Source: a virus (lineage: Duplodnaviria; Caudoviricetes). From it: a DNA stretch of 61,849 nucleotides. Under the pieces are notes generated by a model. That model saw nothing but the letters and a program-made list of their open reading frames with translations. It made no database searches and was not told where the DNA came from. The position numbers and the translations under genes are program-made. The stretch spans positions 1 through 61,849 of the IMG/VR virus record IMGVR_UViG_3300037367_000013; one strand, written 5' to 3'. The stretch's first letter is position 1. Every line of letters begins with the position of its first letter. Shown here in pieces: positions 6,680-39,852 of the stretch.

Positions 6680-7324
6680 ATGAACAAGCGACATCTTGCG
6701 GTGGCCGCTGGCGTGCTGGCCCTCGTTACTGGCGGCGTGGCGTATAGTGCTGGAAACTGGTCAACGCTGCCTCAAGTCGGCGAACCGTCGTTCTGCGTGT
6801 CCACCGTCAGCGGTACGGCATCGCCGTCGAACTCGCCGTACCTGCAGCCGCCTGGTTCAACGCAGGGCACTGGCTCATCCATCTGCGCACAGACCGTTCC
6901 TGCGGGCCCTGTGGGCCTGACCGGCAATGAAATCATCCCGGCCGATACGCAGCTCACTGGTTCAGCGGCACCGCAGACCGTGACAATCCCGGTTCTGTTG
7001 TTCGACAGCGGTGCGTTCAATTATGTTCAGGGTTATAGCACTTTGCTGTCCGGCACAAACGTTGTTATCCCGAACAACACCAATGTCGAATTGCTTGATC
7101 CGTCCCAGACTGTAGGGACATTGAGCGTTACGCTACCAGCCTCCCCGCTCAATGGTCAGATGGTCCGTCTCGCTTCGACCCATACGATCACGTCACTTTT
7201 GATGATAGCGCCGGGCACTACGATCAACAATTCACCGACCGCGCTGACGGTTTCGACCACTGGTGCGTACAACTATGATTTCATCTATGACTCCCCGCTG
7301 TTGACGTGGTTCCGGGTTCAATAA
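6680..7324 (+). CDS. Exported Ser/Thr/Pro-rich virion-type beta protein
   Basis: Sec signal MNKRHLAVAAGVLALVTGGVAYS/A; two Cys; C-terminal fibre-like LLDP...TLP.SP.NGQ; AGGAG RBS. Confidence 0.75.
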   Translation: MNKRHLAVAAGVLALVTGGVAYSAGNWSTLPQVGEPSFCVSTVSGTASPSNSPYLQPPGSTQGTGSSICAQTVPAGPVGLTGNEIIPADTQLTGSAAPQTVTIPVLLFDSGAFNYVQGYSTLLSGTNVVIPNNTNVELLDPSQTVGTLSVTLPASPLNGQMVRLASTHTITSLLMIAPGTTINNSPTALTVSTTGAYNYDFIYDSPLLTWFRVQ

Positions 7325-7370
7325 GCTGGGATTTCTCGGCTTCATTGTTGCCGCTACTTTCTGGCCTGGG

Positions 7371-36608: not shown

Positions 36609-37378
36609 AAAGATTTCTGCCAATCCTTGCGGTGTTGCTGGTTTGCGTTGGCCTATTCTGCCTGGCGCAAGCGCCGTCCCGCGCGCAGGGATGGTTGCCG
36701 CTGGGGGCGGCGAGTGGGGGCGGAGGATCGTTCTCGCTGACTTATGCGACCTTCGCCAACAATGCCCCAACCTGTTGCAGCGGTGTCACCTTAGTCGATT
36801 TTAATACGTTGACATGGGGACCGGGATGCAACGCGCTTGTCGTTGATGTAACATTCAGCGGTCCTCCTACCGCGATTGATGTTAGCGGCATTTCAATCGG
36901 CGGCAGCGGCGGAACGGGCGGCCTCGGTGGATCAGAAGTAACGGGCAGCTATGCGTCCAATACCAGCGGAAACGTCTTTTCGACAATCTGGCAAACATCT
37001 GGTGCGCCATCCGGCAGTTCTGGCGATGTTGGTGTAAGCTTTACCGGAGCGGTTGGGCAATTCAGTTCGGACGTTTCGGTGGCGCTGTATTGTTTGATTT
37101 CGGCGCATCTGACGGGCGTTGGTGCAAATAGTCAGACATTCGCGACCAGCGTTTCACAGTCAATTGCTGTTCCAAGCGGCGGTAAAGGTATAGCGGCAGT
37201 TTTACAAAGTAGCAGCGGCGCTGTGACGTTGACGAATGCCACGCTTGACAAAGGCCCCGTAGGGAGCAGCGTGTTTTCCAATTTTGCCAGCGTAACCGGC
37301 AACGGTAGCACAATCGCGGTGACGGCAGGCGGCCCGAATGTATCGTGGGCGCTTTCAGAGGCAGCGTGGGGGCCGTGA
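36605..37378 (+). CDS. Exported Ser/Gly-rich beta protein
   Basis: Signal MKRFLPILAVLLVCVGLFCLAQAPSRA/Q; GGGGS linker; four Cys. Confidence 0.75.
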   Translation: MKRFLPILAVLLVCVGLFCLAQAPSRAQGWLPLGAASGGGGSFSLTYATFANNAPTCCSGVTLVDFNTLTWGPGCNALVVDVTFSGPPTAIDVSGISIGGSGGTGGLGGSEVTGSYASNTSGNVFSTIWQTSGAPSGSSGDVGVSFTGAVGQFSSDVSVALYCLISAHLTGVGANSQTFATSVSQSIAVPSGGKGIAAVLQSSSGAVTLTNATLDKGPVGSSVFSNFASVTGNGSTIAVTAGGPNVSWALSEAAWGP

Positions 37379-39852
37379 TGCGGCGTGTCCTCAGTGCTCT
37401 AGCGATATTCGCAAGCAGTATGGGCGCAGCTTGCGCGGGCATGGCCCCGGTGTTCATGTGGAACGGTGGCGGCGGGAGCCTAGCAGCGCCGCAAGTCCAG
37501 ATCGGCGTCGGCGGGACCGAGTTCTTCGGTTACAGCAATACGACGCCAACCTTCATAAACTGGTTCAAGGGCTCGCAGTATAATTTGAACGGCAACGCGC
37601 CGACAGTGTTGGACGCAAATCAATATCCCAACGCGGCGGCAATGACCGCCAGCATGTCGTTCAATCCGACGTTTCAGCCCACCCGCGCTATCTATAGCGG
37701 AAATTGGGAAGAGGGCTGGACTGGAACTTGGGCGCTGCAAAACCAAAGCACAATTACGGTCGTATCTGATCCGCAGAGTTGCAATCAGGGTAGCGGGCTG
37801 TTTTCCGGCACGAACTGTGACGTGACGTTCTCGTACACGGCCGATCCTAACGGTGCCGTCACTATACCGCAGAGCACCTATTCCGGTGTCTCCGGCGCGT
37901 TCCTGATCCGATCATCGGACAAGACGGACTACACGAACGGCAAAGTGTTTCTGCCCGAGTTTCGCAGCATCGTTAATTCGTCAGGGCTAAACCCGCTCGC
38001 GCTGCGAACTATGAGCGCCGGACTGACGATCGTCGGAAGTTGGCGGGATAGACTGCCGGTCGCTGCGGCTTCATACGGTTTAAATTACTGGGTGCCGAAC
38101 GATTGGGCCGGGGCAGATACGACGCACACCGATAACTACGTCCTGACCTCCTATCCGAACATGCCGGGAAGCTGGACGGATAGTGAACTTTTTCAGGCGA
38201 GTTTTACGCACGCGAGTAATACTACTATAGCGATCACCGCTGCGGCGAATGACAGTGGGAATAATCAGGTTCAGTTAACCGTGGGCTCGACAGCGGCCCT
38301 GAGCACCAATCAGAATGTATTGGTTGCAAATTGTGCGAGCAATCTTCCGCCAACAGTCTATGCGATAACCGTAAAAACCGGCACGACCCTAGACTTGCAG
38401 GGGACAACGTACTCGTCCGGCGTATGGAGTAATTGCCCGGTAAGCGCGTCGTTCGCGCCGGGCTTCATATCGACAACGACGGTCAATGTCGGTAGCCGTG
38501 GCCCAAAATTCGTCTTGCCACTAACTAATCTTGGCTTCTTTAGCGTGCCGTCCTCGACGATTGCCTCAAGCGATACGGGTACATTCGTTTACAACGCATT
38601 GTTAGGAGTTTTGCTCTATACCAGCGGCGGGATAACCTACATCAGCGGCGGCGAGGGGCCATTGCCGCCTGAGATAATGGCTGAACTTGCTAACGAAGCT
38701 GGCACCGCTCTGTGGTGGAACATTCCTCCATTCTGGCACGCCGCAGATGTTAATTCGGCGGTCAGCTATTTTAACTCCAACCTTAATAGCGATCTCTTTA
38801 TTGAGTATAATAACGAGAATTGGAATTTCCTGTCTGTGTTCATGACACAGAACGGATACGCCCTTGGGTTGCCGAATGGGTCTAACGAGGGGCTTTACAG
38901 CTATGTCGGCCTGGAAATCAGACAATTATTCGGGGCAGCAACGTCCGCGTGGACTAGAGGCTCATCGCATCTCCATCGCATCAATGCCGCGCAGGCTGGC
39001 GCCGGAACGCTCGCTCCAGACTTTGCGAGTTACCAATTCGCAGGCGCAGCTTTGTGCGGGACTAGCTGCGGAAATTCTACTTACCAGGCCGCTGTGGGCA
39101 CCGACTACAATGTTTCACCAAATCGCCCGAAGGACTTTAGCGATGCCTATGCCATCGCGACTTATTTTCAGGGCGCACAGGCCCAAGGCGATGTTGCAAG
39201 TTCGCTGACGCAAATCACCGGGATGTGCAACGGCACGACTTGCACCGGATTGATCGCGGCGGCGTCCTGCTATGCCGCGCCATCCAATACGACCTGTGGA
39301 ACGGGCGGAACCGCCGCGCTGGCATATCAATTCATCGATAATGACCTCCGAAGCGGCAATTTGATCGGACAGAGCGGTTGCGCGAACAATAACACGACGA
39401 TCTCCTGCATCGAACCGGGGTTTTTCACTACCTGGCAGGGCATCGCCAATACCGACGGCAAGCAACTCGTCGCCTACGAGGGAGGATTTAGCGGGGCTGG
39501 CCCATCGGTCGCTGGGTTGACGGCCTTGGGCGATGGCAATGCCTCGACCGATGCGACCAATATCAACAATCTGTTGATTGCCTACAGGAACCAGTCGTTG
39601 TTCCAGACGACCTACACTCTGTTGAACACGACGTGGTTCTCAAATTCTACAGTGACCGGAAATGCCAATCTTGGCGTCGAGGCCGGCACGATAAGCATAG
39701 GAGCCTATAATCTGGGTTTGATGCCGGGGCTGTTTCCATTTGCGCCTTACCAAAATTACAACGCCATCAAGGCCATCAACTACCTGCTCAAGCGTGATCT
39801 CAATCCGGCGAGTAACGACAACGATCCAGTAGGACTAAGTAAGGTTGCGTAA
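37378..39852 (+). CDS. Exported glycoside-hydrolase-like depolymerase (clan GH-A-like barrel)
   Basis: Signal MRRVLSALAIFASSMGAACA; WWNIP, IEYNNENWN (acid/base-like) and LVAYEGG (nucleophile-like); twelve Cys. Confidence 0.65.
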   Translation: MRRVLSALAIFASSMGAACAGMAPVFMWNGGGGSLAAPQVQIGVGGTEFFGYSNTTPTFINWFKGSQYNLNGNAPTVLDANQYPNAAAMTASMSFNPTFQPTRAIYSGNWEEGWTGTWALQNQSTITVVSDPQSCNQGSGLFSGTNCDVTFSYTADPNGAVTIPQSTYSGVSGAFLIRSSDKTDYTNGKVFLPEFRSIVNSSGLNPLALRTMSAGLTIVGSWRDRLPVAAASYGLNYWVPNDWAGADTTHTDNYVLTSYPNMPGSWTDSELFQASFTHASNTTIAITAAANDSGNNQVQLTVGSTAALSTNQNVLVANCASNLPPTVYAITVKTGTTLDLQGTTYSSGVWSNCPVSASFAPGFISTTTVNVGSRGPKFVLPLTNLGFFSVPSSTIASSDTGTFVYNALLGVLLYTSGGITYISGGEGPLPPEIMAELANEAGTALWWNIPPFWHAADVNSAVSYFNSNLNSDLFIEYNNENWNFLSVFMTQNGYALGLPNGSNEGLYSYVGLEIRQLFGAATSAWTRGSSHLHRINAAQAGAGTLAPDFASYQFAGAALCGTSCGNSTYQAAVGTDYNVSPNRPKDFSDAYAIATYFQGAQAQGDVASSLTQITGMCNGTTCTGLIAAASCYAAPSNTTCGTGGTAALAYQFIDNDLRSGNLIGQSGCANNNTTISCIEPGFFTTWQGIANTDGKQLVAYEGGFSGAGPSVAGLTALGDGNASTDATNINNLLIAYRNQSLFQTTYTLLNTTWFSNSTVTGNANLGVEAGTISIGAYNLGLMPGLFPFAPYQNYNAIKAINYLLKRDLNPASNDNDPVGLSKVA

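Follow-up and report, generated by a model that had tools for sequence, protein, structure and literature searches.

In the textbook view, tailed phages are assembled wholly within the cytoplasm of the infected cell. Here, we describe a tailed-phage genome in which twelve open reading frames (ORFs) in and around the virion gene module encode proteins with predicted export leaders and even numbers of cysteines (Cys). The genome is the virus record IMGVR_UViG_3300037367_000013 of IMG/VR (Duplodnaviria; Caudoviricetes). The record is complete, carries direct terminal repeats at its ends and was analyzed over its whole length of 61,849 bp (hereafter the window). No tRNA genes were found in the window. 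PHROG profiles identified a P22-like virion module, and the gene order expected of such a module, namely portal, coat, gp4-like adaptor, gp10-like protein and gp7/gp20/gp16-like ejection proteins, is the order found. The matches have E-values of 1e-79 for the portal, 3e-52 for the major head protein and 2e-75 for the Hc3/gp10-like protein; DNA ejection proteins were matched as well, and the fourth of them has a lysozyme-like N-terminus. Cultured phages yielded no megablast match to the virion module, and a close cultured relative was not found in the phage collection. Nine of the twelve leader-bearing ORFs, termed here E4 to E12, lie on the plus strand directly 3' of the ejection genes (29429-39852), while E1, E2 and E3 are located upstream (Table 1). 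From E4 to E12 the consecutive genes overlap or nearly touch each other, with junctions of -4, +118, +1, -4, -16, -4, -4 and -1 bp. Promoter-like and terminator-like sites are no commoner in this DNA than in shuffled sequence, and the scan thus neither splits an operon nor proves one.

In an independent search for the twelve ORFs, all start codons were screened for a following leader, recognised by its basic n-region, hydrophobic core and AXA-type cleavage site. Leaders with these features and with small residues at -3 and -1 are predicted in all twelve proteins by the heuristic together with inspection; the E9 leader is ambiguous, with two tandem segments. The heuristic missed E6 and some leaders of homologues (e.g. 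L037, P0276), and such rows were checked by eye. When cysteines are counted behind the predicted cleavage sites, the twelve mature chains contain 2, 2, 2, 6, 2, 2, 4, 8, 10, 4, 4 and 12 residues in gene order, which reproduces exactly the counts of the initial annotation. Its estimate of about 1 in 4000 for twelve even counts agrees with the naive model (0.5^12 = 2.4e-4). With a Poisson model based on the cysteine frequency observed, the value is 3e-4, or 3.6e-5 with zero counts excluded, and the even share among the leaderless proteins of the window that have any cysteine (17/32) leads to a chance of 5e-4. The uncut precursors contain 2, 2, 2, 6, 5, 2, 4, 9, 10, 5, 6 and 13 cysteines, hence eight even and four odd counts, and eight further cysteines lie inside the hydrophobic cores of five predicted leaders. 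Perfect parity is found only in the mature chains, which argues that the leaders are removed. Cysteine is also 1.9 times commoner in the twelve mature chains (58 of 3,614 residues, 1.60%) than in the 63 leaderless proteins (103 of 12,163, 0.85%).

Table 1. Features of the window. Leaders are predictions; cysteine positions of E4 are in precursor numbering.
Feature	Position	Strand	Description
E1	6680-7324	+	214 aa; predicted Sec leader 24 aa; 2 mature Cys (39, 69); no Pfam, PHROG or NCBIfam family
E2	8975-9376	+	133 aa; leader 20 aa, Gln at +1; 2 mature Cys (74, 121); weak phrog_22789 match
E3	21118-21600	+	160 aa; between adaptor and gp10-like genes; leader 24 aa; 2 mature Cys (97, 151)
E4	29429-31342	+	637 aa; tailspike/fibre homologue; leader 22 aa; 6 mature Cys (33, 175, 387, 451, 546, 633)
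E5	31339-32562	+	407 aa; second fibre-like protein; 3 Cys in leader; Gln at +1; 2 mature Cys (251, 259); phrog_14820 match
E6	32681-32929	+	82 aa; leader 24 aa; 2 mature Cys (61, 71); stop one base before E7 start
E7	32931-33815	+	294 aa; leader 23 aa; 4 mature Cys (102, 121, 243, 252); ORF open from 32727
E8	33812-34711	+	299 aa; 1 Cys in leader; Gln at +1; 8 mature Cys
E9	34696-35985	+	429 aa; BNR/Sortilin-type propeller family; two tandem leader-like segments; 10 Cys, all after both
E10	35982-36608	+	208 aa; 1 Cys in leader; 4 mature Cys
E11	36605-37378	+	257 aa; 2 Cys in leader; 4 mature Cys; ORF open from 36278
E12	37378-39852	+	824 aa; 1 Cys in leader; 12 mature Cys
Large terminase	9366-11036		PHROG profile
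Portal	11194-13368		PHROG profile
Coat (major head protein)	16412-17716		PHROG profile; 0 Cys
Adaptor	19816-20589		PHROG profile
gp10-like protein	22691-24193		PHROG profile
Small leaderless protein	24190-24648		weakly similar to E3
Four ejection proteins	24658-29339	+	1,560 aa in total; 0 Cys; contrast class; PHROG profiles matched first and fourth
Thirteenth leader-bearing ORF	39933-40502	+	outside 6680-39852; His-rich mature N-terminus; 3 mature Cys (odd)
Endolysin	40868-41443		GH108, leaderless; peptidoglycan-binding domain
Holin-like membrane protein	42000-42425		lysis region
Lipoprotein	42422-42757	+	lysis region; lipobox Cys and 2 more; similar lipoproteins in related loci
Leader-bearing ORF	43017-43223		leader; 0 Cys
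Type II membrane protein	43225-43614		lysis region; possible spanin part
Type II membrane protein	43618-44022		lysis region; possible spanin part
Wzy_C protein	7371-8510	+	polytopic membrane protein; Pfam E 4e-10; 5 Cys

The coat protein and the ejection proteins have no cysteine, as the initial annotation had also stated. Given the cysteine frequency of the phage, such an absence from all four ejection proteins would arise by chance with a probability of about 2e-6, and their homologues in related loci are free of cysteine in 123 of 123 cases (44, 30, 24 and 25 per protein). This looks like an exclusion of cysteine from proteins that are folded in the cytoplasm yet have to cross, and act in, the oxidising periplasm. 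Locus searches with a single protein, either E8 or the fourth ejection protein, gave no relatives.

The parity of the twelve chains is repeated in the family of E4. The relatives of E4 number more than 600. Of the 120 listed, many have a length of 54-62 kb for the longest contig in which they occur. Among these 120, 89 are full length with a recognisable mature start, of which 80 have an even and nine an odd number of cysteines. In all 89 strong conservation starts exactly at the predicted cleavage site, while the leader sequence is variable yet retains the basic n-region, the hydrophobic core and the small -3/-1 residues. In an alignment of 94 mature sequences (84 even, 10 odd) a core of four cysteines stands out. 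Cysteines 11 and 153 of the mature chain are both present in 94 of 94 sequences, and cysteines 365 and 429 in 91, being lost jointly in the other three. The extra cysteines are mostly recurrent pairs, among which 468+612 is seen in six sequences, 524+611 in five and 500+508 in three, alongside several others, and the ten odd sequences carry a single extra or missing cysteine. The pair 524+611 is the window protein's own third pair, so that the covarying pairs of E4 read 33/175, 387/451 and 546/633 in precursor numbering. Covariation of cysteines in homologues, which the initial annotation had named as a check, was hence found in the joint gain and loss of E4 pairs, and likewise in the E12 family, where four cysteines come and go together as a block.

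A HMMER scan with the E4 profile gave 21,007 representatives at E<=0.001. The best 150 of these, clustered at 50% identity and thus largely independent, were sorted by leader and parity. Leader-bearing representatives with unambiguous parity comprise 72 even, 11 odd and no zero counts (n = 83, binomial p 4e-12), whereas the clearly leaderless ones comprise 22 even, 18 odd and no zero counts (n = 40, p 0.64). A further 23 are unclear, mostly leaderless by eye, with 13 even, nine odd and one zero count, and four leader-bearing representatives of ambiguous parity were set aside, which brings the leader-bearing total to 87 of 150. The difference in parity between the leader-bearing and leaderless classes is significant (Fisher p 2e-4). 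Leaderless homologues begin directly at the head-binding module that is described below, and those whose N-termini were inspected, both prophage and viral, are without cysteines 11 and 153.

Parity in the homologues, also named as a check by the initial annotation, is non-random in the E3, E5 and E12 families as it is in that of E4, and fails in the family of E9, as discussed below. Two cysteines are found in 13 of the 15 leader-bearing members of the E3 family, and of the other two one has none and one a single residue; one further member, whose leader was missed by the heuristic, has two. The four leaderless E3 members start where the mature part of the others starts and have one cysteine each. 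In the E5 family all nine leader-bearing homologues are even, with four to 14 cysteines, despite very different C-terminal parts. E12 has eight homologues, one of them truncated; the seven full-length chains contain 16, 14, 10, 12, 14, 14 and 17 mature cysteines, hence six of seven are even, two of the cleavage sites having been corrected by eye. In E12 itself most cysteines are close neighbours in the sequence (135/147, 319/353, 560/564, 617/622, 631/640 and 668/677). For E10 there are two leader-bearing homologues with eight and six cysteines, and for E11 a single homologue, with no cysteine. The bias is absent from the homologues of the gp10-like protein (21 even, 19 odd) and from the family of the small leaderless protein that is weakly similar to E3 (E 0.001), which has nine zero, six even and seven odd counts. 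E1 and E3 were considered as possible paralogs, and this was rejected (E 0.35). In the window and 59 related loci together there are 176 leader-bearing proteins, 30 of them parity-ambiguous; the other 146 divide into 110 even, 18 zero and 18 odd counts, while the leaderless proteins with any cysteine in the loci alone are 212 even and 278 odd, all of these counts being descriptive and non-independent, since the loci include near-duplicates. Several of the odd leader-bearing proteins in the pooled loci are lipoproteins with a lipidated first cysteine.

Some features of the leaders and gene starts deserve a separate description. The E4 frame is open from 29375, with TTG starts at 29375, 29420 and 29429. 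E6 was not called by a coding-score gene caller, and a homologue of it was not found in the related loci. In E9 the first leader-like segment (residues 20-43) is twin-arginine-like and ends in an AXA site, and the second (about residues 68-87) aligns with the leaders of all homologues. Between the two segments (34696-34960) there is no ATG, and the sole start is a GTG at 34834. The tandem arrangement may be the remnant of a module exchange at the leader boundary, or may reflect an alternative start. Glutamine is very often the first residue after the predicted cleavage site, namely in E2, E4, E5, E8 and nearly all relatives of E5; leader-bearing representatives of the E4 family with a mature start Gln-Phe have it as well. 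After cleavage such a glutamine would give a pyroglutamate N-terminus.

Searches of Pfam, PHROGs and NCBIfam yielded no informative family for the twelve proteins. E4 is composed, in this order, of the leader, a conserved N-terminal peptide with one cysteine, an insert of roughly 100 aa, the head-binding module at about residues 134-200 and a C-terminal half that is receptor-binding-like. In tblastn searches residues 134-200 align with the N-terminal parts of proteins annotated as tailspikes and depolymerases in cultured podoviruses (E down to 2e-11); for the C-terminal half the matches are to the Pam5 tail spike and to a protein of an Agrobacterium phage. The family profile gives a weak match (E 0.028) to the PDB chain 7eeq_A, 'Tailspike head-binding domain', and in the family this module has many invariant columns. 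A structure model of E4 with a predicted local distance difference test (pLDDT) score of 72.6 has 230 fold matches in BFVD at E<=1e-3, and the named ones inspected among the best 50 are mostly tail fibres and other tail proteins. Against PDB folds it gives weak matches of low template modelling score to receptor-binding proteins, which is support at class level only; it also weakly matches the Bd2133 fibre and a TNF-like lectin. Many E4 representatives share only the N-terminal 300 or so profile positions and then diverge into other C-termini. A conserved N-terminus with swapped C-termini is the modular pattern usual for virion-attached spikes. The position of E4 after the fourth ejection gene is kept in a syntenic prophage (L001) and in more distant prophages. 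An ordinary podovirus tailspike has no leader and is assembled in the cytoplasm. A leader stands at the N-terminus of E4, as it does in 87 of the 150 best representatives, and E4 is for this reason not filed as an ordinary tailspike.

For the other proteins the assignments are less detailed. E5 shares a fibre repeat with the cultured Bradyrhizobium phage ppBjS10J-1, whose own fibres are leaderless. The BNR/Sortilin-type assignment of E9 stems from precomputed Pfam labels of its homologues. The nearest Atlas structural neighbours of E12 are secreted sugar- or cellulose-binding bacterial proteins, and E12 is possibly a carbohydrate-binding or carbohydrate-cutting protein, although we treat this as a lead only. 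Phmmer searches of E12 and E9 against PDB sequences gave nothing usable, and E3 had no tblastn match in cultured phages; the position of E3 is kept in a Xanthobacteraceae prophage. Outside this set, family profiles and gene calls revealed no candidate for a leaderless fibre or spike in the genome. In the Bradyrhizobium prophage L003 the E4 homologue is leaderless, yet the gene after next (11968-13740) encodes a leader-bearing fibre-like protein with 16 cysteines; the Xanthobacteraceae prophage L001 contains a leader-bearing fibre of 1,005 aa (11613-14630), also with 16 cysteines. Thus, leader-bearing and leaderless fibres can coexist in one element.

Relatives of E4 were found in six genome loci, five of which are in records assigned to Xanthobacteraceae, Methyloligellaceae, Bradyrhizobium, Bauldia and Hyphomicrobium. 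Xanthobacteraceae and Methyloligellaceae fall in the Hyphomicrobiales, and so, we assume, do Bradyrhizobium, Bauldia and Hyphomicrobium. The closest locus is a syntenic prophage in a 634-kb Xanthobacteraceae contig with leader-bearing homologues of both E3 and E4. From these prophage relatives the host order is likely Hyphomicrobiales. The three searched genomes with related prophages (Xanthobacteraceae, Bradyrhizobium and Methyloligellaceae) contain seven to ten DSBA-family and one to two DsbB matches, all above the Pfam cut-offs.

We consider it probable, judging from leaders and cysteine counts, that the twelve proteins are exported, that their leaders are cut off and that their disulfides are formed by host DsbA/DsbB in the periplasm. 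The proteins would cross the inner membrane of the infected cell by virtue of their leaders, most of which are of Sec type with an AXA signal-peptidase site, E9 having an extra twin-arginine-like segment, and the leader would be removed. Host DsbA/DsbB would join the cysteines into intramolecular disulfides, mostly between neighbours in the sequence. As the least certain step, the proteins would dock onto spike-less P22-like particles built in the cytoplasm, either when the inner membrane is breached by the holin or in the lysate. What is made and oxidised in the periplasm is most probably the receptor-binding set, because E4 keeps the module that joins a spike to the tail and E4 to E12 sit in the late structural operon. 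More tentatively, it is possible that the entire receptor-binding apparatus is built outside the cytoplasm by means of Sec/Tat, signal peptidase and DsbA/DsbB, and is then docked on spike-less particles at the holin breach or in the lysate; the head-binding module, the gene position and the finding of no other spike point in this direction.

The twelve proteins could also be exported and disulfide-bonded without ever becoming part of the virion. They would then be secreted or cell-surface fibres and enzymes of the infected cell or the lysogen, which might mask or destroy receptors and so keep progeny and superinfecting phages from sticking, or might act as adhesins carried by the cell, as the Bdellovibrio MAT fibres do. 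Export would indeed remove the proteins from a cytoplasmic assembly line, and the weak matches of the E4 model to the Bd2133 fibre and the TNF-like lectin fit this explanation, as do, as a lead only, the secreted bacterial neighbours of E12. However, such proteins would hardly account for a tailspike head-binding module that is kept with many invariant columns, or for a conserved N-terminus that is combined with swapped C-termini. Nor was a leaderless candidate for the role of receptor-binding protein found in the rest of the genome. The genes overlap each other, no break is detectable between them and the preceding ejection genes, and E3 sits between the adaptor and gp10-like genes, a position conserved in a prophage. 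We regard a purely non-virion role as the main rival but as the less likely one, and prefer receptor-binding proteins that are made in the periplasm and end on the particle.

It is far less probable that the leaders stay uncleaved and the proteins are assembled in the cytoplasm, so that the even counts reflect disulfides formed after release into oxic surroundings, or metal-binding clusters of cysteines. To our knowledge, all tailed-phage virion proteins studied so far are assembled in the cytoplasm, and the spacings C-x4-C and C-x2-C in E8 and C-x3-C in E12 would also fit metal sites. Even counts do occur in leaderless E4 homologues (22 of 40), but these homologues also end outside the cell and are nonetheless unbiased, with 18 odd counts and, in the E3 family, four leaderless members with one cysteine each. 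Since the leaderless homologues show no bias, oxidation or metal binding after cytoplasmic assembly is an unlikely source of it. The parity further appears only if the eight cysteines of the leaders themselves are excluded, conservation begins exactly at the AXA site behind a variable basic-hydrophobic segment, and the gp10-like protein, another protein of the particle surface, is unbiased. Chance, aided by a free choice of starts and cleavage sites, can practically be excluded. Starts and sites were picked by eye in the initial annotation and by a heuristic here, the sample of twelve proteins is small, and an odd leader-bearing ORF lies just outside the chosen range. Yet no cysteine lies between the alternative plausible cleavage sites, except in E12, where the alternative concerns a cysteine at -2, inside the leader. 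The bias is repeated in the E4 representatives at 50% identity and in the E3, E5 and E12 families, and even counts near the 50% that chance would predict are seen in the E9 family only.

Several observations weigh against periplasmic oxidation of the whole set, or at least limit how far it can be carried. The claim that all exported proteins are even holds for 12 of 12 within 6680-39852 but not beyond: the thirteenth leader-bearing ORF, just downstream, has three cysteines, as have its relatives in two related loci (L011 and L020). This protein has no family match, and its odd cysteine might be catalytic. In the E9 family the seven leader-bearing homologues contain 7, 5, 3, 5, 5, 4 and 6 mature cysteines, hence five odd and only two even counts; a conserved set of five cysteines recurs in them, and the ten of the window protein are this set and five extra residues. 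Odd counts occur in 11 of the 83 leader-bearing E4 representatives, and with 22 of the 40 leaderless ones being even, parity tells little about any single protein. E1, E2, E6, E7 and E8 have no homologues in the data searched and contribute a single count each. Leaders and cleavage sites come from an n-h-c/AXA heuristic with inspection rather than from a trained predictor, and in several homologues the heuristic mis-set the cleavage site, which was corrected by eye against the conserved mature start. The short C-x2-4-C spacings in E8 and E12 are compatible with metal sites, and the structure model of E12 (pLDDT 46.5) is too poor for a fold search. The host order is deduced from prophage relatives, virion attachment of the exported proteins from homology and gene position, and export, cleavage and disulfide formation are themselves what we infer from the sequences. 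The initial annotation had read the even counts as support that the signals are functional and the appendages disulfide-stabilised. Of this reading, the core stands: the parity is real and tied to the leaders, as it emerges only after leader removal and differs between the leader classes of E4, the cysteines covary, and Dsb genes are present in the likely host order. It does not stand as a universal rule, given the E9 family, the thirteenth ORF and the odd members of the E4 family.

A comparison with known systems helps to place these proteins. Leaderless podovirus spikes (7eeq_A, Shewanella phage X14, Pseudanabaena phage Pam5, and prophages of Bradyrhizobium, Methyloligellaceae and Hyphomicrobium) have the same head-binding module and C-terminal half as E4, follow the ejection genes of a P22-like module in the same way, and likewise combine a conserved N-terminus with exchangeable C-termini. 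Unlike them, E4 and its nearer relatives carry ahead of the head-binding module a leader, a short conserved peptide with one cysteine and, in the long form, an insert of about 100 aa. In the E4 family a cysteine inside the head-binding module always accompanies the N-terminal one (94 of 94), and the leaderless forms lack the parity bias of the leader-bearing family. Virion proteins with Sec leaders are well known from the filamentous phage Ff, whose pIII and pVIII are made in this way and whose pIII acquires its disulfides in the periplasm. However, Ff particles are assembled at the envelope and extruded through it without lysis, whereas the phage described here is icosahedral and short-tailed, has a lytic cassette and would build head and tail hub in the cytoplasm. 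In P22, tailspikes added in vitro to spike-less heads complete the particles. Such a late completion from outside is what an export-then-dock route needs and makes this route physically plausible, although the P22 spike itself is cytoplasmic and leaderless and its late addition is a laboratory procedure only.

A preference for even cysteine numbers among exported proteins is accepted as a sign that disulfides are formed; it applies to 49 of 52 aerobic Alphaproteobacteria (Daniels et al. 2010, PMC2823432, citing Dutton et al. 2008). The DsbA/DsbB substrates treated there and the twelve proteins are alike in signal peptide, cysteine enrichment and even counts, and in the presence of Dsb genes in the likely host order. 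In that work the signature is described for cellular secretomes, while here it is found on a fibre and spike set in the late structural operon of a tailed phage. The MAT fibres of Bdellovibrio bacteriovorus are phage-fibre-like proteins with a signal peptide, a conserved beta-rich domain directly behind it and variable, disulphide-containing tips (Caulton et al. 2024, PMC10769870). Their layout, as outlined in that report, resembles that of E4; what is compared is layout and not sequence, and the weak fold match to the Bd2133 fibre adds to it. The MAT fibres are, however, encoded by chromosomal genes of a predatory bacterium and displayed on its cell, whereas E4 belongs to a phage virion operon and has a tailspike head-binding module. 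Among the titles and abstracts of the literature surveyed we found no description of export signals on fibres or spikes of tailed phages, two candidate papers (PMC5026251 and PMC8951688) dealing with other matters. What is unusual is thus the location, a known secretome signature on tailed-phage fibres and spikes.

The lysis region (40868-44022) encodes a leaderless GH108 endolysin with a peptidoglycan-binding domain, a holin-like membrane protein and a lipoprotein; two type II membrane proteins in this region are possible spanin parts. Between E1 and E2, upstream of the terminase gene, lies a gene for a polytopic membrane protein of the Wzy_C (O-antigen ligase) family, which is not among the twelve. 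A single distant relative of it was found in viral contigs (L061, 32% identity). It could be a serotype-conversion gene or, more speculatively, could encode an enzyme that O-glycosylates the Ser/Thr-rich exported proteins.

If the exported proteins do dock onto the particle, completion of the virion would be a late step that follows the breach of the membrane, and infectivity would depend on the periplasmic folding machinery of the host. Host range would then depend on the secretion and disulfide machinery of the host. Gain or loss of a leader together with the matching cysteine pair would switch a spike family between two assembly routes. In prophages and metagenomes, leader-bearing fibre genes would be wrongly labelled as genes of secreted bacterial proteins. 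The phage group concerned is mostly soil-borne and is large, with 21,007 representatives of the E4 profile. The test of parity and its coupling to the leader is cheap, sorts leader-bearing from leaderless spike families in any data set, and points to residue pairs that can be tested, such as the N-terminal cysteine that is tied to the head-binding module.

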